Positions 539 to 61,767 of a DNA stretch of 64,000 nt are shown here, piece by piece. A program made the translations under genes and the position numbers. Positions within the stretch are counted from its first letter, which is position 1; each line of letters starts with the position of its first letter. The stretch is taken from the IMG/VR virus record IMGVR_UViG_3300027749_000098, positions 7,421-71,420 of that record; one strand, written 5' to 3'. The notes beneath the pieces are model-generated. The model saw only the letters and a program-made list of their open reading frames with translations, was not told the origin of the DNA and did not search any database. The stretch is from a virus.

Positions 539-739
539 CTAGGAAAGAAAATCTTTAAATAATTTTTCTATTTCAGGATTATCAAATAACACATCAATTT
601 CTGTAGATTTATGCAGGCATTTACCTTGCCCGTTAATTCCAGTGGATAAAGTAGTTCTATCTTTATTTAATTCAATTTCAGTAAAGTTATTTCCATAGGA
701 AAGAAAGTTTTTAAACCGGATTGTTTCAAAAATTACCAT
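539..739 (-). CDS. gp46: gp46 (SbcC/Rad50-like) N-terminal fragment fused to a 26-aa N-intein
   Basis: FKNFLSYGN...GINGQGK is the gp46 N-terminus and Walker A. The expected Ser is replaced by CLHKSTEIDV (intein block A), then a stop. Directly follows gp47. Confidence 0.85.
   Translation of the reverse strand: MVIFETIRFKNFLSYGNNFTEIELNKDRTTLSTGINGQGKCLHKSTEIDVLFDNPEIEKLFKDFLS
542..619 (-). mobile_element. Split intein N-fragment (IntN, 26 aa) in the gp46 P-loop
   Basis: CLHKSTEIDVLFDNPEIEKLFKDFLS* begins immediately after Walker A GK. Confidence 0.75.
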
Positions 740-1803
740 TATTCAACCGCCATTGCTTCAGTATATAAATTAGACATCATAGTCTTCAATTTGTTTTTAT
801 CTAATTCTTGTTGATTAATACTATCAATATATTTGTAAGTAATTGTTAGCGTATCATCAGTTTCATCAACATCCTCATCAATCTCTAAATCAACCACATC
901 TTCTGTAATTGATACATCTATAGGGTTATTAGCATAAACCTGATCAACAAATAAATCAAACAAATATGGATTAGTTTTAGCCTTAACTTGAATCTTAACA
1001 TATTTACCAATTACGTTAGATAAAAATTCTTTATCAAGATAGCTGGAATTAGTAACATCGCTAGATCCAGAATCATCATAATCCATCTTATAGAAAATTG
1101 AATTTGGATTAAGTACAGTTTCCAATTCCCTAGTTTCTAAGTCAAAAACTCTAAAACCTTTTGGATCGGCATAATCTTGCCAAGTCATCTCATAAGGAGT
1201 CCCTATGTACTCGATATTCCCTCTCTTAGACGCGTGATGATAATGACCGGATAATACCCTTTCATAATTAGAAAACGCCTTAGCGGACAATCCATGCTCC
1301 GATAGGATACTACTTTGGTACATCTTAAAACCTTCTATTTCAAAATGCCCAACGCAAACAGTAGAAGTATCTTGTTTAATAAAATTTAAACATTCTTGAT
1401 AATTTTCTTTACAAATCCATGGAATAATAGAAATTCCACTAAGAAGTTTAGTTGGTTCTTTTACAACAGTTACATTTTTAAATTGTGTTAAGAATAACCC
1501 AGAACTACTAATACTCAATGATTCTTTATAAAAGAGGTCGTGATTTCCCAATAGCGTAGTTAATTGTATATCCAATTTATCAAATCTAGAAAAGAAATAT
1601 CTTTTTGCTTCATCAAGAGTATAATGGTTAGAATATTTACGTCTATCAAAAATATCACCTAATTGAATAACGTGTTTAACATTATTAGCAATTAAATAAG
1701 GAAAAAATACATCAGTATAGAATTTATCAAAAAATTCATGGAAGTGTTGACTATCCCCGCGACAACCAAAATGCGTATCACCTAAAAATACAATTTTACT
1801 CAT
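739..1803 (-). CDS. gp47: Recombination endonuclease subunit (Mre11/SbcD-like)
   Basis: GDTHFG, LGDIFD, GNHD, SGHYH metallophosphoesterase motifs; synteny gp55-gp47-gp46. Confidence 0.95.
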   Translation of the reverse strand: MSKIVFLGDTHFGCRGDSQHFHEFFDKFYTDVFFPYLIANNVKHVIQLGDIFDRRKYSNHYTLDEAKRYFFSRFDKLDIQLTTLLGNHDLFYKESLSISSSGLFLTQFKNVTVVKEPTKLLSGISIIPWICKENYQECLNFIKQDTSTVCVGHFEIEGFKMYQSSILSEHGLSAKAFSNYERVLSGHYHHASKRGNIEYIGTPYEMTWQDYADPKGFRVFDLETRELETVLNPNSIFYKMDYDDSGSSDVTNSSYLDKEFLSNVIGKYVKIQVKAKTNPYLFDLFVDQVYANNPIDVSITEDVVDLEIDEDVDETDDTLTITYKYIDSINQQELDKNKLKTMMSNLYTEAMAVE

Positions 1804-2468
1804 TAATCCTCCAAGAAAGTTTCAATTCCTTTAGCTTTTTTCTTTTTCTTCGCTACAGGACTTTTAGTGCTTTTTTTGAATTCAGTATCTTCAAATTTTT
1901 GAATAAAATCATACATATTATCATAAACTTCAATTTGTTTAATTTGACCATCACCAAGTTCCAGTAACTCAGCTTCATCAAGAATACCGAAATTTTCTGT
2001 TGCTTTATATTTTATATACTGTTGTTTTTTTTCTTTTTGAATTCTACGAACAAAACACCACCAAAGAATCTGAGTAAAATAAGCAAAGGGATTTTTAGTT
2101 TTTGCTGAATCAAAATTTTCAAAATACATTAAACAGTTTTCAATCCCATCAGCAATCATTTCATCTTTATATGAATACCCAAAAAAATTAGGTCTACGAG
2201 CTAATCCCTCTGATAATTTAACAAAACATTCTCCAATATAATTTGGAATTCTAGGTTTAATTTTCCCTTCAGCTTTAGCAAGAGCGCAATCAGCTTTATA
2301 TTTCTCTAAAGCAGCGCAAAAATCAGCATTATTAATATATTCTCGCGTGACCTTTTTTCGTTTTACTTTAGCAACAACGGGTTTTTCTTCCGGAAGATCT
2401 TCTAATAAAGAAGGTATTTCTTCAGTAAAATCTGGGACGTCAGCAAAATCAAATTTTAATTCTTTCAT
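1803..2468 (-). CDS. gp55: Late-transcription sigma factor
   Basis: YINNADF, PNYIGECF, YSYKDEMIADGIENC, NPFAYFTQI motifs. Probable start is ATG 2468 (GGAG RBS) rather than 2504. Confidence 0.95.
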   Translation of the reverse strand: MKELKFDFADVPDFTEEIPSLLEDLPEEKPVVAKVKRKKVTREYINNADFCAALEKYKADCALAKAEGKIKPRIPNYIGECFVKLSEGLARRPNFFGYSYKDEMIADGIENCLMYFENFDSAKTKNPFAYFTQILWWCFVRRIQKEKKQQYIKYKATENFGILDEAELLELGDGQIKQIEVYDNMYDFIQKFEDTEFKKSTKSPVAKKKKKAKGIETFLED

Positions 2469-2504
2469 AGCAATTACTCCATATAGTATAAGGTATTTTA
2501 ACAT

Positions 2505-4630: not shown

Positions 4631-5071
4631 TTAATTTCCTGCTAGGAATCTTGTATATGTCATGTATTCTCTTAATTGCCAAGTTCTGTTACCGAGCTCT
4701 TTAATTATTGCCTCACAAACATATATACATTCCTCATAGTAGGCTTTCTTTTCAAGAATTTTTATTAAAAAATCGTCAGCTTCAAGATAAGTATCAATAT
4801 TACCTTTGGTGCCGATCTTTAAGTCGAACTGATCCCATCCATACTCGTCCAAGGTTTCCTTTGCAAGATTTCCTAGGTAATACTCCCTACGAATTTTTTT
4901 CATCTTTGCATGGTCGAATTTTGCTTTCTGTGCAGCGAGTCTATGCTGAGAAAGAATCTCGACATATTTCGCATGCAAAAGAGGGGTATTTACTAATTCT
5001 TGGTGAGGTTTAGATTCGTCGATTTGACTATCTGATTTCCAATATTCTATAATTGTATCAAGTTTTATCAT
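4631..5071 (-). CDS. uvsY: Recombination mediator UvsY
   Basis: WKSDSQID...PLLHAKY...YLEAD...NRTWQL; upstream of uvsW. Confidence 0.85.
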   Translation of the reverse strand: MIKLDTIIEYWKSDSQIDESKPHQELVNTPLLHAKYVEILSQHRLAAQKAKFDHAKMKKIRREYYLGNLAKETLDEYGWDQFDLKIGTKGNIDTYLEADDFLIKILEKKAYYEECIYVCEAIIKELGNRTWQLREYMTYTRFLAGN

Positions 5072-5120
5072 ATTAAATTCTCAAATAAACACTATAAAAA
5101 TATATATAGGGTCTAATTTT

Positions 5121-5672
5121 TTACCATATTCCATCAACTATTGTTGTTAAGTTATATCGTTTAAATCTAAATGTTGCTGTGGCTGTAATAATAGTAGATG
5201 AATTTAATCTAACATCTAATGGAATGCTTGAAAGATATACTGGAAACACATCAATAAATTGAACTCGCATCTTAGGTTTATCGTCTGCCGCTAGAGTTGT
5301 TAAAACTGCATCTGCATATTGTGGAGTATTAATAAACTCATATTGGCTATATTTAGAAAGTTTATCTAAATTTTCGTAATCCTGAAAAGATTCTGCCTGA
5401 GTATATCCTTTTATCCAATAATAAATATTAGCCCAAGATTTTAATTCTTCATCAACAAGAAATGTAACTTCTAGATCTTCATATTCCATTTTATCACCTG
5501 GAACACCCATATCCCTAAATGGAGATAATTGAACGGTACTTTGAGAGTTAACTCCTGGAATATTAACAGCTTGGCAAAAAAATTGCATTGCCGGTAATCT
5601 TGGTATAGAAAATAAAAATTTAGCAGACTGCAATAAATTGGTGTTACATATATTTGTATCGTTAAGTGCCAT
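5121..5672 (-). CDS. gp3: Tail tube terminator/completion protein
   Basis: FFCQAVNIPG, PGDKMEYEDLEVTFLVDE, gp19-fold motifs; late promoter upstream. Confidence 0.85.
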   Translation of the reverse strand: MALNDTNICNTNLLQSAKFLFSIPRLPAMQFFCQAVNIPGVNSQSTVQLSPFRDMGVPGDKMEYEDLEVTFLVDEELKSWANIYYWIKGYTQAESFQDYENLDKLSKYSQYEFINTPQYADAVLTTLAADDKPKMRVQFIDVFPVYLSSIPLDVRLNSSTIITATATFRFKRYNLTTIVDGIW

Positions 5673-5701
5673 GTAAGTCCTTGTTTATATAGGTTTTACT
5701 A

Positions 5702-5709
5702 TATTTATA
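5702..5709 (-). promoter_or_regulatory. Late promoter TATAAATA (gp3)
   Basis: Exact consensus about 30 nt upstream of the start. Confidence 0.75.
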
Positions 5710-5730
5710 AATTCTAAATACAAATAATGC

Positions 5731-5759
5731 TTTACTTTTTTTAATTAATGTAGTACAAT
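5731..5759 (+). promoter_or_regulatory. sigma70-like early promoter for the TET/GT operon
   Basis: TTTACT-N17-TACAAT, followed by AGGGGG RBS before ATG 5790. Confidence 0.65.
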
Positions 5760-5789
5760 ATAAGTGTAATCTTTAAAATAGGGGGATAA

Positions 5790-7172
5790 ATGGTAAAAAT
5801 TGTAGTGTTGAAACCAGAAGAGGTAACGTCAAGACCTGATTTGGTTGGTAAATGGCTAGATGAAAGTCATTATAAAATATTAGTTGAAGAAGATTTGGAT
5901 GTATATCTTCCTCCAGATTGCGCAGAGTTTGCTGCCGAAGAAAACTGCGATCATAATATGGAATGTAATTCTTGTACAAAAGGCTTGTCAGAAAAAAATA
6001 TCGTATTTAAATTTCGTAAAAACTTTTTTACTAAAGAAGAAGCTGATGCTGCTTATGCAGGTTTACGAGATGCAGCTGTTGAAACTCAAAATAGAGGAAT
6101 GGCTGGTGGTCCAAGAACTGCTACATGCGCAGGAAGAGAATGGGTTACTGATGAACAATTTGATTTATTAGAATTCTTTGCACATAAAAATTCGACTTCA
6201 GTATTTGGCGGATATACGCCAAAGGCAGATGTTGATTTAATACGAGCTAAGTATAAAAATCTTAAATCTGATGATAGTCGTGGTGTCGTCTGGTTGACTG
6301 AGCAAATCAGAGCCGAACAATTTGTATTTAATGATTTTATTGATAAATTATGCACCTTAACTATTGATGAAGCAAAAGCTGAAGCTCAACGAGTATTAGA
6401 TAAATTGATTAGTAAAACGACTTATGCTAATGTCGTAAATTCTGGTATTGCTGGGTGGTATGATAGATATCCTAGGATCCCTTTTGGTAGACCAACTACA
6501 TATACGAGAGATAACCTAGAAAAGTTTGCTAAATCATATCCATTCTTACAATCTTTAGCTAAAGGTTTTAAAGATATGCTGCCATGGCGTTATGGTAATC
6601 AAAAACGTGCTGCAGAATCGATCGATCAAAGATTTGTTGTACCGGATACTCCATTTACGACAATTACAGTAAATAAAAACTTTCGAACCGCTGGCCATTA
6701 CGATCCAGCTAATATGGAAGATGGATTCGCTAATCTATGTGTAATGTCAAATAATGATCAATATGAGGGATGTTATTTGGTATTTCCTGAAATAGGTTAT
6801 GCTGTTGATATTAGACCTACTGATTTATTGTTAGTAAATAATCAAGCTGGGTTACATGGTAATACTGAATTAAAACTAAAAGATCCAGATGCAGAAAGAA
6901 TTAGTATGATTGCGTTTTTCCATGAAGGTATGTTAACGCTTGGTACTTATGATTACGAGAATACTCGCAGAGAATTTATTGATAGCCGTAGATTAAATCC
7001 AAATCATCCAGACCAAAGATATCGTTGGAATGGTATTACTCCTGGATTATGGGAATCAGATGAATGGATTGATTACTTGTTAGCTCAACCGCAAGGCAAA
7101 GGTTGGTTAGAATCCTATCACAAAGATTTGTATGACCGTAGATTCGGTAATAGTTTAGATAACTTTTTTTAA
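5790..7172 (+). CDS. TET/JBP-family 2OG-Fe(II) dioxygenase (5-methylpyrimidine oxygenase)
   Basis: SGIAGWYDRY; TPFTTITVNKNFRTAGHYD (HxD); GLHGNT (distal His); RISMIAFFHE (2OG-binding Arg). Confidence 0.85.
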   Translation: MVKIVVLKPEEVTSRPDLVGKWLDESHYKILVEEDLDVYLPPDCAEFAAEENCDHNMECNSCTKGLSEKNIVFKFRKNFFTKEEADAAYAGLRDAAVETQNRGMAGGPRTATCAGREWVTDEQFDLLEFFAHKNSTSVFGGYTPKADVDLIRAKYKNLKSDDSRGVVWLTEQIRAEQFVFNDFIDKLCTLTIDEAKAEAQRVLDKLISKTTYANVVNSGIAGWYDRYPRIPFGRPTTYTRDNLEKFAKSYPFLQSLAKGFKDMLPWRYGNQKRAAESIDQRFVVPDTPFTTITVNKNFRTAGHYDPANMEDGFANLCVMSNNDQYEGCYLVFPEIGYAVDIRPTDLLLVNNQAGLHGNTELKLKDPDAERISMIAFFHEGMLTLGTYDYENTRREFIDSRRLNPNHPDQRYRWNGITPGLWESDEWIDYLLAQPQGKGWLESYHKDLYDRRFGNSLDNFF

Positions 7173-7180
7173 GGTAGATT

Positions 7181-7990
7181 ATGAAATTGAATATTGCAAT
7201 TCCTTCGTATAAACGATCTGATACGCTTAGAGATAAAACTTTAAGTGTATTGGAAAAATATAATGTAGATCCAAATACAGTAACAATCTTTGTTGCTAAT
7301 GATGCCGAAAAGACTGCATACGAAACATCATTAAAAGATAACATTTATAACAAAAATATTGTTGTGGGTGTTGTTGGTATGGGACCAATTAGAAACTTTA
7401 TTAGAAATTATTATGATGAGGGGGAATTTGTTGTAAATTTTGATGATGATTTATCGAGTATTATGCGCAAAGCTCCTGCTGATGAAAAGAAAATGGAGCC
7501 AATTGAAGATATCCATAAAGAAGTATTTGAGCCAATGTATAATATTATGCAGGAGAACGAAAATAAGCTCTGTGGTGTCTATGCAGCGTCGAATGCTTTT
7601 TTTATGAGTTATACCCCTAAGACTGGTTTATATTACTGCATTGGGTCGTTGTGGGGCTGCATTAACGATAAACATCAAGATCGTATGGTTCAATTATGCG
7701 ATAAAGAAGATTTTGAGCGAACTCTTCAACATTATGTTCTTGATGGTTCAGTTTCGCGATTAGACAATATTACTGTTATATCCAAATATTATACTGAAGA
7801 TGGAGGAATGCAAGTTGAACGAACTCTTGAACGTATTGATAAAAGTGCTGACGATTTAGTTCGTAGATTTCCAGATTTATGTACAAAATACGTCCGTGAA
7901 ACTACAGGTCACGCTGAATTACGCTTACGGGATACTAGTGGAGGTAAATATCAAAAATCCACTTCTTTTGATTTAGATAGTTTTTTCTAA
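7181..7990 (+). CDS. TET-associated GT-A-fold glycosyltransferase (TAGT-like)
   Basis: IAIPSYKR, VNFDDD (DxD), KEDFERTL, GGMQ motifs; directly follows the dioxygenase. Confidence 0.8.
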   Translation: MKLNIAIPSYKRSDTLRDKTLSVLEKYNVDPNTVTIFVANDAEKTAYETSLKDNIYNKNIVVGVVGMGPIRNFIRNYYDEGEFVVNFDDDLSSIMRKAPADEKKMEPIEDIHKEVFEPMYNIMQENENKLCGVYAASNAFFMSYTPKTGLYYCIGSLWGCINDKHQDRMVQLCDKEDFERTLQHYVLDGSVSRLDNITVISKYYTEDGGMQVERTLERIDKSADDLVRRFPDLCTKYVRETTGHAELRLRDTSGGKYQKSTSFDLDSFF

Positions 7991-8002
7991 ACTTCCAAAT
8001 AG

Positions 8003-8029
8003 AAAAAGGGAGCCGAAGCTCCCTTTTTT
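8003..8029. terminator. Bidirectional intrinsic terminator (UUCG loop on minus strand)
   Basis: AAAAAGGGAGC-CGAA-GCTCCCTTTTTT between convergent GT and gp23. Confidence 0.9.
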
Positions 8030-8054
8030 GTTTCATCCATGAAACACAACTAAA

Positions 8055-9392
8055 TTACATTAAGTTTTTCACAGCAAAGATTCTGTAATAGTTGTTGCTA
8101 CGTGGAGTAATTGCACCCAAGCCTTGGTTTGTACCTTCAGCGAATGGATTTGCTACTAAACCGTAACGAGTTTTGAAGCCGATTTTTGGTTGGAAAGTAC
8201 CTGGATCAACTGCACGAACCATTTGTAAAGGAACGTATGGGCAGTAGAATAAACCAGAGTCATAAGGGCTTGTGCCTTTATAACCAACTGTACATAATTC
8301 AACGTTTTGATATGAACCACCGAAGTAAGGATCGATATAAACTTTGATACGACCATGTAACAAACCAGCATATGTATTACCAGTATCATCAACTTGTAAA
8401 TCAGCTGATAATGCAGGAGTATATTGTAATACACCAGCCATTGCTAGAGCAGAAGCAACGTCAGAAGAAACGATTAAGATGTTACCTTTTCCTCTACGAG
8501 TTGTTTTAGCGATTTGATTAGCTTCTCTTTCGATATGATAAATCAAACCTTTAAATCTTTCAACTGACCAACGACCATTTGAGTCTGTATCTAAGTCGAA
8601 TACGCCTGGAGTAACTGTACCGAATTGAGCACCAGCTTTAGCTACTGTATAGATTGTACGAATTACTTCGCGGTTCATCTCAGCAAGAATTTCTGTAGAT
8701 AAAACGTTTGATAATTCAGTTTCAGCATCTAAACCATGGATTGCTTTTAAATCTTGAGCCATTTCTAAGCTGTATTCAGCTTTTAATGCACGAGTTTTAG
8801 CAGAAACAGTAACTTTTTCAATTGAAATTGACATTTCACCGAATACAGTACCATTACCATCGCCTAATACTTCGCCAGCAGCAGTTGACATGCCAGTACC
8901 AGTATCAAATACTGAACTGCCATTTGGACCAGAAGTACCAACTGCTGAATTAGATGTACCTGAAGCTCCAGAAGTACCAATAATACCTGAGAAGATAGTA
9001 TTAGCTTCATTGTAGAATGCTTCAGTTCCGCCACCAGAAGTGCTACCATTTGATTGAGCTGCGCCTTGAGCGCCATAACGTGAACGTAAAGCAAAGATTA
9101 ATCCAGTAGGACCAGTCATTGGTTGAACGCCAGCTACGTCATAAGCAATCAAATTAGGTAAAGCACGACGTACTAAACTGATTAAGATTGGATCGAAGTT
9201 AGAAATACCGCCAGTTGTATTAGTTGGTGTTCCTTCCATCAATGTTTCGCGATCTGAATCCATCGCTGCTTGTTGATTTTCCAATACAATTGCAGTAACT
9301 GCTTTTTTGTATGGATCAGTAATTTTTGCTAATTCTGGATGATCCAGAACTGGACTCCATTTATTTTGCAATTCTTCGTTTAATAAAGCCAT
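8055..9392 (-). CDS. gp23: Major capsid protein
   Basis: FDPILISLVRR, GVQPMTGPTGLIFA, KTRALKAEYS, FQPKIGFKTRYG. Confidence 0.98.
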   Translation of the reverse strand: MALLNEELQNKWSPVLDHPELAKITDPYKKAVTAIVLENQQAAMDSDRETLMEGTPTNTTGGISNFDPILISLVRRALPNLIAYDVAGVQPMTGPTGLIFALRSRYGAQGAAQSNGSTSGGGTEAFYNEANTIFSGIIGTSGASGTSNSAVGTSGPNGSSVFDTGTGMSTAAGEVLGDGNGTVFGEMSISIEKVTVSAKTRALKAEYSLEMAQDLKAIHGLDAETELSNVLSTEILAEMNREVIRTIYTVAKAGAQFGTVTPGVFDLDTDSNGRWSVERFKGLIYHIEREANQIAKTTRRGKGNILIVSSDVASALAMAGVLQYTPALSADLQVDDTGNTYAGLLHGRIKVYIDPYFGGSYQNVELCTVGYKGTSPYDSGLFYCPYVPLQMVRAVDPGTFQPKIGFKTRYGLVANPFAEGTNQGLGAITPRSNNYYRIFAVKNLM

Positions 9393-51742: not shown

Positions 51743-52198
51743 ATGTCAAAAATAATGAGTAGATATCCAAAACCAAGAAAATGGGTTCCAAAAAATAAAG
51801 AGAAGTATAAAGGAGATTGGGATAATATTATATCAAGATCTTCATGGGAATTACGAGTTTTTAAATGGATGGATGATAATCCATCAGTATTGGAATGGGC
51901 ATCAGAAGAATGTGTTATTCCATATAAATCTCCAGTAGACAATAAATTACATAGATATTTTCCTGATATATGGGCAAAAGTAAAAGGAGTTGATGGCAGA
52001 ATTAAAACATATTTGTTGGAAATTAAACCGGAATATCAAGCAGTTGCTCCTGAAATTAAAAAACGAATAACTAAACAATATATAACAGAAGTATGTACCT
52101 ATGCAATAAACCAAGCTAAATGGAAAGCAGCAAGAGAATATTGTATGGATAGAAAATGGGAATTTAAAGTTCTAACAGAAAAGGATTTATTTAAATAA
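51743..52198 (+). CDS. gp4: Head completion protein (TnsA-like nuclease fold)
   Basis: PKNKEKYKGD...RSSWE...WASEE..IPY...HRYFPD...EIKP...NQAKWKAA. Confidence 0.93.
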   Translation: MSKIMSRYPKPRKWVPKNKEKYKGDWDNIISRSSWELRVFKWMDDNPSVLEWASEECVIPYKSPVDNKLHRYFPDIWAKVKGVDGRIKTYLLEIKPEYQAVAPEIKKRITKQYITEVCTYAINQAKWKAAREYCMDRKWEFKVLTEKDLFK

Positions 52199-61017: not shown

Positions 61018-61767
61018 ATGTCCAGCACAAATACTTATATTATTACAGAATATCAACGTTCAAAATTTAAACCAACATATTTGATGATCAAGCAGCATCA
61101 AATTACAGGCAAAAAATATTTTTGTAAAACTACGAGAAATAATCCAATAAAATATCTTGGGTCAGGTAAGTATTGGAAATCACATATACAAAAATATGGA
61201 AAACAATATATTGAAACCAAATGGTATAAATTGTTTACCAATATAGATGAATTAGTTTCTTTTGCTTTAAATTTTTCTTATGAAAATAATATTGTTGAGT
61301 CGGATGATTGGGCTAACTTAATCTTTGAAAATGGATTGGATGGAGGATCAAATTCAGAAACAATATCAGAACAAACTAAAATAAAAATGAGTCTTGCGCA
61401 AACAGGAAAAGTTATGTCTATTGAATCCAGTATAAAAAAATCAATTGCAAATAACGGGCAAAGTAGAACCAAACAACAAAAAAATAATATATCAATTGCA
61501 TTAACTGGAATAAAAAAATCCGAAGAACACAAGAAAAATTTATCAATTAGTAGAACAGGGAAAACATACCCAAAAATATCCGAAAGTCAATCATATAAGT
61601 GGGTATGTATAAACACCAAATTTAATCAAGAATATAAAACTACACGATTAAAAGAATTTTGTAAAGAACACAATTTAAATTATAGTTCAGCAAAAGGTTC
61701 TAATGGTAAAATATCGAAATATGGAATAAATACTGGTTGGATATTTAAAAACCATAAACACATTTAA
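61018..61767 (+). CDS. Seg-like GIY-YIG homing endonuclease with NUMOD3-like repeats
   Basis: TYLMIK...GKKYFCKT...YLGSGKYW; KSEEHKKNLSISRTGK; inserted antisense between phoH and the exonuclease. Confidence 0.85.
   Translation: MSSTNTYIITEYQRSKFKPTYLMIKQHQITGKKYFCKTTRNNPIKYLGSGKYWKSHIQKYGKQYIETKWYKLFTNIDELVSFALNFSYENNIVESDDWANLIFENGLDGGSNSETISEQTKIKMSLAQTGKVMSIESSIKKSIANNGQSRTKQQKNNISIALTGIKKSEEHKKNLSISRTGKTYPKISESQSYKWVCINTKFNQEYKTTRLKEFCKEHNLNYSSAKGSNGKISKYGINTGWIFKNHKHI

Follow-up and report, generated by a model that had tools for sequence, protein, structure and literature searches.

A two-gene operon of a T4-like virus was analyzed on a 64,000-nucleotide stretch of DNA (the window) comprising bases 7421–71420 of the 71,420-bp IMG/VR viral contig IMGVR_UViG_3300027749_000098, which is rated about 40% complete by CheckV. 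The operon consists of two plus-strand open reading frames (ORFs) 8 nt apart, ORF1 (5790–7172, 460 aa) and ORF2 (7181–7990, 269 aa), which, judged by family profiles, motifs and predicted folds, very probably encode a DNA 5-methylpyrimidine dioxygenase of the TET/JBP family and a DNA glycosyltransferase (GT). The explanation that is favored, and that is held to be reasonably likely as a whole, is that a T4-like myovirus uses the pair, as a single transcription unit, for post-replicative modification of its own DNA. The first enzyme, an Fe(II)/2-oxoglutarate dioxygenase, would act on thymine in DNA, turning it into 5-hydroxymethyluracil (5hmU) by hydroxylation of its 5-methyl group. The second, a GT of the GT-A fold, would move a sugar from a host nucleoside diphosphate sugar onto the 5hmU hydroxyl, and L-D-x-F-F peptides at the ends of both proteins would, from their sequence and from a model of the complex, bring the enzymes to freshly copied DNA via the sliding clamp gp45. 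The predicted product, a base-J-like glycosyl-5hmU, should hinder restriction and other DNA-targeting defenses. The chemistry is of a published kind, and what is new is the clamp-type tail, the other feature of interest being a tailoring cassette that is swapped behind a conserved dioxygenase.

Identification of the Dioxygenase and the Glycosyltransferase

ORF1 was identified as a long-form TET/JBP 5-methylpyrimidine dioxygenase (5mYOX) from its match to Pfam Tet_JBP (PF12851; E = 1.2e-23, 83.6 bits against a cut-off of 34.9, residues 244–379) and, in PHROGs, to phrog_24024. In an alignment of 41 homologues, pairwise less than 93% identical, residues H303, D305, H356 and R370 were invariant (41/41), as was an N-terminal N-R-G block. 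From the pattern, we take H303, D305 and H356 to be the Fe(II) triad (HxD...H) and R370 to be the 2-oxoglutarate-binding arginine. A variable insert with four cysteines (C44, C53, C59 and C62) is absent from several homologues. The AlphaFold2 model of ORF1, with a mean predicted local distance difference test (pLDDT) value of 81.4 and a predicted template-modeling score (pTM) of 0.70, found CcTet, hTET2, CMD1 and NgTET1 as its best solved matches in Foldseek (probability 1.00, E values from 1.8e-9 to 7e-7). The TM-scores against these TET-family folds were modest (0.30–0.46), and the identity to solved eukaryotic TET-family chains was 9–15%; a phmmer search of ORF1 and ORF2 against the sequences of the PDB gave chance-level hits (TET2, E = 0.79; dynein, E = 0.011). 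No Pfam domain other than Tet_JBP was found on ORF1 at E values up to 0.1, J-DNA-binding and SWI2/SNF2 domains included. A ParB-like domain fused within the N-terminal 240 residues was considered and rejected, that region having no Pfam match and the model aligning over most of its length to hTET2. The TET homologues of Stenotrophomonas phage DLP6, Cr30, S-CBWM1 and HTVC112P (KU682439.2, KF301602.1, MG450654.1 and MN698246.1) are annotated as 'SNF2 DNA repair protein', a label that looks like a propagated error because ORF1 matches Tet_JBP only in Pfam.

ORF2 was matched to the TET-associated glycosyltransferase (TAGT) family of Pfam (PF20691; E = 1.4e-11, 45.2 bits, cut-off 27.5) and to phrog_25200 and phrog_842. 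Its DxD motif, D88-D89-D90, was invariant in alignments of nine (9/9) and 44 (44/44) TAGTs, and a DxD was present in every one of the 114 full-length hits among the best 120 of 526 database homologues. The AlphaFold2 model (pLDDT 93.0, pTM 0.90) adopts a GT-A fold, and its best Foldseek matches are RmlT, TarS and TarP, wall-teichoic-acid glycosyltransferases that are likewise GT-A; this likeness fits a report on phage DNA glycosyltransferases (preprint 10.1101/2023.12.21.572611). An initial annotation, made from the letters of the window, had claimed both families along with complete HxD...H...R and DxD motifs; the families were borne out by profiles above the Pfam cut-offs and by fold, and the motifs by their invariance in relatives. 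Its reading of the pair as a post-replicative hypermodification system likewise gained support from the Tet_JBP and TAGT families, the folds and the gene context in relatives.

Several observations were made on TAGT genes elsewhere. In Synechococcus phage S-CBWM1 (L001:5207-7921), genes for a phosphatase and a glucose-1-phosphate thymidylyltransferase and a 261-aa ORF come after the TET–TAGT pair, so that this phage may produce the dTDP-sugar donor itself. An inositol-1-phosphate synthase gene adjoins a TAGT-like gene in Cr30, and a tblastn search with the TAGT of the window gave no match in DLP6. Some relatives (L009:4716-6158, L017:11080-12522) have an extra 480-aa ORF after the TAGT gene, with a weak match to REase_MTES_1575 (24.7 bits, under the cut-off).

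C-Terminal Tails Shared with the DNA Polymerase

The last residues of the dioxygenase (453–460, encoded at 7146–7169 on the plus strand) end in SLDNFF and are a candidate gp45-binding peptide by motif and model, and the TAGT ends in FDLDSFF (7967–7987, plus strand), a tail appended after its catalytic core. Neither tail had been remarked on in the initial annotation. In T4, the acidic/hydrophobic C-termini of gp43, gp55 and gp33 are described as able to replace one another as gp45 ligands, and the clamp of RB69 has been crystallized with the last 11 residues of the polymerase (PMC2988020). The pattern [LIMV][DEA]x[FLM][FLWM], followed by 0–2 residues at the C-terminus, was scored over 757 ORFs within 5 kb of TET at 78 loci. 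These loci came from a scan of IMG/VR with best-segment identities to the window TET of 36–100%, both extremes being partial matches, and with full-length matches at 44–97%. The tail was found on 71 of 77 TETs (37 of 41 distinct ones), all 16 TAGTs, 23 of 25 GT-B glycosyltransferases, all 24 gp43 DNA polymerases and 7 of 10 gp55 proteins, and on 4 of 16 AADTs; none of the 11 kinases or 13 GATases had it, and the remaining neighboring proteins had it in 3 cases out of 582. The density of the motif implies that about 0.5% of proteins would carry it by chance. On the contig of the window itself, three of 61 ORFs match the pattern, namely the TET, the TAGT and a gp55-like late sigma factor (1803–2504, minus strand; phrog_234, E = 9.8e-55) that ends in GIETFLED. 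No gp43 is present on this contig; that of a 97%-related record ends in IDDFFA, and that of another relative in IEDFFS.

The tail of the TAGT behaves as an addition to the enzyme. Its core ends at an A-E-L-R-L-K-D block, beyond which T4-like members run 15–20 residues further, and the tail was present in 100 of the 114 full-length proteins among the best 120 database homologues, with near-variants in 6 more. The actinophage homologues (Mycobacterium phage Acadian gp3 and the Arthrobacter phage Altadena GT) stop at the core and are tailless, as are the actinophage TET homologues that lie beside a ParB-like gene. In both Acadian and Altadena, a ParB-like gene adjoins the TET or TAGT genes, and the gp45 clamp would, in the T4-like phages, fill the role of the ParB-like activator of other phage thymine dioxygenases. 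ParB_N (PF02195) was found in none of 20 T4-like records, the contig of the window included, although divergent ParB-like proteins could escape the profile. In the models, the pLDDT drops in the last 10 residues of the TET and is 53 in the last block of the TAGT.

A complex of the gp45 trimer from the 97%-related record with TET residues 421–460 was also modeled. The three runs scored 0.67, 0.67 and 0.64, the best of three controls scored 0.23, and both controls with other partners gave 0.00–0.01; the score mark applied is reached by 58 of 80 solved complexes and by 2 of 110 mismatched pairs. The runs share at least 89% of their contacts, with a partner pLDDT of at least 76, and place TET residues 450–460 against gp45 residues 32–39, 105–112, 202–203 and 216–221. 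Taken with the distribution of the pattern, the model points to tails of TET and TAGT that probably dock on the gp45 clamp.

Several points weigh against clamp docking. Four of the 41 distinct TETs have no tail; the TET of S-CBWM1 has none either, and that of Cr30 has a weak, TLF-type end; most AADTs (12/16) and all the kinases and GATases are also without it. The complex model departed from the calibration in its alignments, which were our own, and in its use of a trimer, and its pass may reflect likeness to, or memory of, the solved RB69 clamp–peptide complex rather than binding. An older report of binding between T4 alpha-glucosyltransferase and gp45 was not reproduced, neither the alpha- nor the beta-enzyme co-purifying with the clamp (preprint 10.64898/2025.12.06.692756); that study used C-terminally His-tagged enzymes of another GT family. 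These points suit an alternative in which the chemistry is as proposed but the L-D-x-F-F ends do not bind the clamp, being a signal for docking to another partner or for degradation, or a functionless convergence, while the enzymes find DNA diffusively, the mode reported for T4 glucosyltransferases. This alternative is considered unlikely, though it is the best placed of the rivals. It has to accommodate a tail that, in the same lineage, is carried by gp43 and gp55, whose T4 counterparts bind the clamp by such ends (PMC2988020), that is rare on other neighboring proteins and that is appended after the core in T4-like phages and missing from the actinophage homologues, together with the near-zero scores of the other-partner controls.

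Clamp docking of both enzymes suggests a wider picture, which is slightly favored, in which hypermodification in T4-like phages is a clamp-docked assembly line, with TET and a tailoring enzyme (TAGT, GT-B or some AADTs) on the gp45 peptide of the polymerase. Bases would then be masked from the sliding clamps left behind on newly copied DNA. The replication clamp would do here what a ParB-type CTP clamp does for other phage thymine dioxygenases, and the arrangement would parallel, in a virus, the maintenance methylation that is coupled to PCNA.

A full-text literature search, with most subscription journals outside its coverage, found no published report of clamp-type tails on 5mYOX or tailoring enzymes. 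In the available text of O'Toole et al. 'sliding clamp' refers to ParB (PMC13229309), and in that of Pyle et al. gp45 and the clamp genes are named merely as neighbors (preprint 10.1101/2023.12.21.572611).

Other proteins with tail-like ends, or from the actinophage loci, were noted. A 66-aa ORF of the window (539–739, minus strand) ends in K-L-F-K-D-F-L-S, loosely tail-like and outside the pattern, and could be a gp33-like co-activator to judge from its sequence. A 287-aa hypothetical protein of DLP6 (L003:3012-3875), three genes upstream of TET, has the tail-like end L-S-S-F-F-N. The actinophage loci are sets of ParB-like, TET and GT genes (L090:1-2441 for Acadian and L091:1953-5328 for Altadena), and a 'glucosaminyl deacetylase' is also part of the Altadena set. 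In Acadian, the ParB-like gene and the TAGT are separated by gp2, which carries the unverified annotation 'queuine tRNA-ribosyltransferase'.

A Swappable Tailoring Cassette behind TET

The TET genes of the clade to which the window belongs (18 loci, TET at least 80% identical) stand in one slot, in the order gp3, TET, X and gp23, where X differs between phages. X is a TAGT in 12 of the 18 loci and a GT-B glycosyltransferase in two (L015 and L080). In two others (L010, complete, and L011, cut off), it is a set of GATase, amidoligase, low-molecular-weight phosphatase, AADT (PF18724) and P-loop kinase 3; in the last two X is indeterminable, the contig ending early. The TET of L010 is 88% identical to that of the window, and a thymidine-hypermodification set stands there in the place of the TAGT, the AADT and the 5-hydroxymethyldeoxyuridine (5-hmdU) DNA kinase being established enzymes of that pathway. 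This exchange, read from gene order, is the strongest argument for thymine as the substrate. A shared 5hmU intermediate is the simplest account of it, because one conserved hydroxylase feeds interchangeable tailoring enzymes.

The same variety was seen within 5 kb of TET across all 78 loci, where neighbors were assigned to families by our own clustering and by Pfam scans of representatives: GT-B was found in 24 loci, TAGT in 16, AADT in 16, GATase in 13 and kinase in 11. Put otherwise, 46 loci have a GT of any kind, 16 an AADT or kinase, 6 both and 22 neither, many of the last being short contigs. A quick IQ-TREE phylogeny of 41 TETs requires at least 14 changes of tailoring type, where the minimum would be 3. 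On these gene arrangements, TET is the fixed head of a swappable module.

In seven close relatives (L012:9402-10124 on the minus strand, L013, L014, L017, L018, L020 and L021), a 240-aa minus-strand ORF lies between TET and TAGT. It gave zero Pfam hits and ends in S-L-E-E-I/V-F, near the tail motif.

Thymine or 5-Methylcytosine

The absence of a C5-methyltransferase from the 64 kb, claimed in the initial annotation, was confirmed, PF00145 finding no match in the whole contig. At about 40% completeness this absence says little, and it was therefore tested in relatives. By tblastn, full-length TET homologues were found in the cultured T4-like phages DLP6 (42% identity), Cr30 (38%) and S-CBWM1 (28%), and PF00145 was absent from the complete genomes of all three. 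Of 19 related records longer than 50 kb, 17 also lacked it; among these 17 are a 126-kb record (71% complete) that has a TET 97% identical to that of the window and two others with a completeness rating of 100%. The dUMP and dCMP hydroxymethylases and dCMP methylases, which provide hydroxymethyl or methyl pyrimidine nucleotides ahead of replication, belong to the ThyA family, and this family was found neither on the contig of the window (0/1) nor in five close relatives (0/5), two of which have ThyX; among the cultured phages, a ThyA-family gene was found in Cr30 only. Judged by these gene contents and by the exchange in L010, thymine is probably the native substrate and glycosyl-5hmU the likely product. 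The initial annotation had left the choice between thymine and 5-methylcytosine (5mC) from an unlinked methyltransferase; the relatives favor the first branch and disfavor the second.

Published work on related enzymes offers parallels. Phage TETs act on 5mC, one of them, TET89, mainly on thymine (Burke et al. 2021, PMC8256090), and phage T-dioxygenases have been demonstrated biochemically (O'Toole et al., PNAS 2026, PMC13229309). A methyltransferase is present in only 20–30% of the 5mYOX contigs near GTs, many of which probably make 5hmU (10.1101/2023.12.21.572611), and a C5-methyltransferase co-occurs with only 6% of 5mYOX pathways (PMC13229309). In metavirome contigs, TET_JBP replaces the dUMP hydroxymethylase beside 5-hmdU kinase and aGPT-Pplase genes, which was read as thymine oxidation (Lee 2021, PMC8989533). 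The idea that the initial annotation put forward had thus already been drawn from missing methyltransferases by Lee 2021, Pyle 2023 and O'Toole 2026.

It is improbable that the TET instead acts on 5mC, supplied by the host or by a methyltransferase in the unsequenced 60% of the genome, and that the pair makes glycosylated 5-hydroxymethylcytosine (5hmC). A number of findings nonetheless count against thymine. An unlinked methyltransferase could lie in the rest of the genome, or a host enzyme could supply 5mC, and two of the 19 long records do carry PF00145, 50–90 kb from TET. Clade A and B phage TETs oxidize 5mC (PMC8256090) and their GTs glycosylate 5hmC (Pyle et al. 2023/24, 10.1101/2023.12.21.572611); the characterized T-dioxygenases oxidize 5mC as well (PMC13229309). 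Several phage TET clades were inactive in E. coli, and P-loop kinase and aGPT-Pplase genes are also found on contigs with both a C5-methyltransferase and TET (PMC8256090). Against 5mC stand the complete genomes of the cultured relatives and the long records in which PF00145 is absent, the same-slot TET that feeds an AADT/kinase thymidine cassette in L010 and the close relatives without a ThyA-family enzyme, while the two methyltransferase-bearing records belong to 235–250 kb phages with two TET paralogues.

Such paralogues, diverged, a few kb apart and followed by an AADT, were observed at three loci (L074, L075 and L076) on records of 150–250 kb, of which those of L074 and L075 are the two with PF00145. 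From their gene content, these phages may modify both T and C.

It is very improbable that the GT acts on a protein, lipid or cell-wall acceptor, with TET alone leaving 5hmU or further oxidized bases or acting on RNA: its closest solved folds are wall-teichoic-acid glycosyltransferases, but PF20691 is a family defined by its association with TET genes and includes the T-even beta-glucosyl-HMC-alpha-glucosyltransferase (phrog_842; preprint 10.64898/2025.12.06.692756), the TAGT gene directly follows TET or lies within 1 kb of it in the 16 loci that hold both, TAGT shares its tail with the DNA polymerase, and phage GT-A enzymes resemble the trypanosome base-J glucosyltransferase (Pyle 2023, 10.1101/2023.12.21.572611).

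Expression Signals

Upstream of the TET gene, a sigma-70-like promoter (TTTACT-17 nt-TACAAT, 5731–5759, plus strand; 9/12 matching positions) is followed by the Shine–Dalgarno sequence AGGGGGA (5780–5786, plus strand). All 8 aligned relatives, some with diverged flanks among them, preserve its -35 (GCTTTAC) and -10 (TAnAAT/TAAACT) elements, while the spacer drifts. Such sites are, to the detriment of this assignment, not enriched in the AT-rich stretch, where 16 were found and 17.5 were expected from shuffles. On the minus strand, TATAAATA (5702–5709), 30 nt upstream of the gp3-like start, is a T4-type late promoter, which we take to be perfect against the T4 consensus. From its strand and position, it serves the neighboring gp3-like structural gene and not the TET–TAGT operon. 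Most of the 8 aligned relatives preserve its TATTTAT core, though not at every column. It is a reasonable inference from these signals that TET and TAGT form an early or middle transcription unit. The word 'early' in the initial annotation thus stands as inferred from the conserved promoter rather than demonstrated. Between the convergent TAGT and gp23 genes lies a bidirectional hairpin terminator (8002–8029) with an A-run, a 12-bp stem and a T-run; its RNA folds with a free energy of -19.9 kcal/mol (z = -5.0, 0 of 200 shuffles as good), and by its structure it can terminate both convergent units.

Gene Neighborhood and Other Features of the Contig

The 71.4-kb contig has 61 called ORFs, and its minus strand carries 51 of them, which make up a T4-type structural and replication module; TET and TAGT break this run. 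The pair is flanked by gp23 (8055–9392, minus strand; Pfam Gp23, E = 1.3e-140) and by a gene for a gp3-like protein with a tail-tube fold (5121–5672, minus strand; phrog_45), beyond which UvsY and then UvsW follow, all on the minus strand. The latter flank is presumably gp3, given the gene order of marine T4-like phages. These calls and family matches agree with the antisense insertion between gp23 and gp3 that had been described at the outset. The nearest cultured relatives by gp23 are Methylophilales phage Melnitz (62%) and Stenotrophomonas phage DLP6 and Pelagibacter phage HTVC008M (both about 60%). A megablast search of 5000–8500 against the phage collection gave zero matches, and no tRNA genes were found in the window.

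Further features lie at a distance from the operon. A homing-endonuclease-like ORF (61018–61767, plus strand; phrog_314, weak NUMOD3) runs antisense to the two genes around it, one for a PD-(D/E)XK nuclease and the other phoH. Immediately upstream of a gp2-like DNA end protector is a 151-aa ORF (51743–52198, plus strand) that contains the N-terminal domain of a TnsA-like endonuclease (E = 1.7e-22). Upstream of the window on the same contig, a gp46-like SMC_N recombination nuclease subunit (L005:4885-6855) shows, close to its N-terminus, weak matches of the intein type (to Intein_splicing at E = 2.9e-7 and to PT-HINT, each under the Pfam cut-off), which suggests an intein inside gp46. Also upstream is a 264-aa ORF (L005:3184-3975; phrog_1574) that weakly matches Anp1 and glycosyltransferase PHROGs; members of its family are found within 5 kb of TET in 18 of the 78 loci. 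The idea that this ORF is a paralogue of TAGT was rejected, since it has zero similarity to TAGT, and it is also without a clamp-type tail. It could be a second, untethered GT-A-like enzyme or a mere fixed neighbor; because it is found beside GT and AADT cassettes alike, it was treated as a fixed neighbor outside the system.

Significance

The two-gene chemistry is one more example of a published class, and it is the mode of delivery that would matter. If the tails bind gp45, they would explain how a post-replicative enzyme covers the whole genome fast enough to protect it, and they would link two modes of activation, by ParB and by the replication clamp. The tails would also serve as an easily read sequence mark by which modification enzymes that act on DNA could be picked out of T4-like genomes, and C-terminal tags may mask clamp interactions in pull-downs. 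The swappable cassette behind a conserved TET would provide natural enzyme sets for differently decorated thymidines, and the predictions can be put directly to the test in the cultured relatives Cr30, DLP6 and S-CBWM1.

Comparison with Known Systems

The T-dioxygenases of phages have been split into ParB-independent enzymes, often found by GTs, and ParB-dependent enzymes, found by GATase, kinase and AADT genes (PMC13229309). The window TET resembles the ParB-independent 5mYOX (Clade C2, 5mYOX89 and 5mYOX97) in that no ParB was found, no C5-methyltransferase is a neighbor and a GT is. With the phage T-dioxygenases of that study, ParB-dependent ones such as 5mYOX176 among them, it shares the TET/JBP family and a predicted post-replicative action on DNA. 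It differs from them as a 460-aa long form from a T4-like myovirus, with an N-terminal extension, a variable four-cysteine insert and a polymerase-like C-terminal tail, the last being unmentioned in the available text of that paper. The relatives of the window TET have tailoring partners of both subclasses, AADT, kinase and GATase being those of the ParB-dependent one, yet ParB_N was found in 0 of 20 records; judged by gene context, the lineage fits neither published subclass neatly.

The clusters of methyltransferase, 5mYOX and GT described by Burke and by Pyle are alike in having a dioxygenase followed by a GT-A enzyme acting on a hydroxymethyl base, whereas the window and most relatives have no methyltransferase, from which thymine is proposed. 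Kinetoplastid base J (JBP1/2 and JGT) offers the same predicted sequence of steps, from thymine to 5hmU by a TET/JBP enzyme and then sugar transfer by a GT-A enzyme. By Pfam, however, the window TET has no J-DNA-binding or SWI2/SNF2 domain, and the likely purpose here is protection of the phage genome, not control of transcription. Compared with the thymidine-hypermodification clusters (PMC8989533), the sister loci L010 and L011 carry the 5-hmdU DNA kinase type, AADT/aGPT-Pplase, amidoligase and GATase, whereas the window has a glycosyltransferase and not the kinase/AADT route.

The tails are like the epitopes of T4 and RB69 gp43, gp55 and gp33 in being short acidic/hydrophobic C-terminal peptides after a poorly ordered linker; in the window, they sit on DNA-modifying enzymes, and their binding to the clamp is a modeled one. 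The older proposal that T4 alpha-glucosyltransferase works with gp45 is alike in envisaging a phage DNA glycosyltransferase that acts from the clamp. That enzyme belongs to another GT family, and the T4 chemistry starts from pre-replicative 5hmC, whereas the pair in the window would modify thymine after the DNA has been copied.

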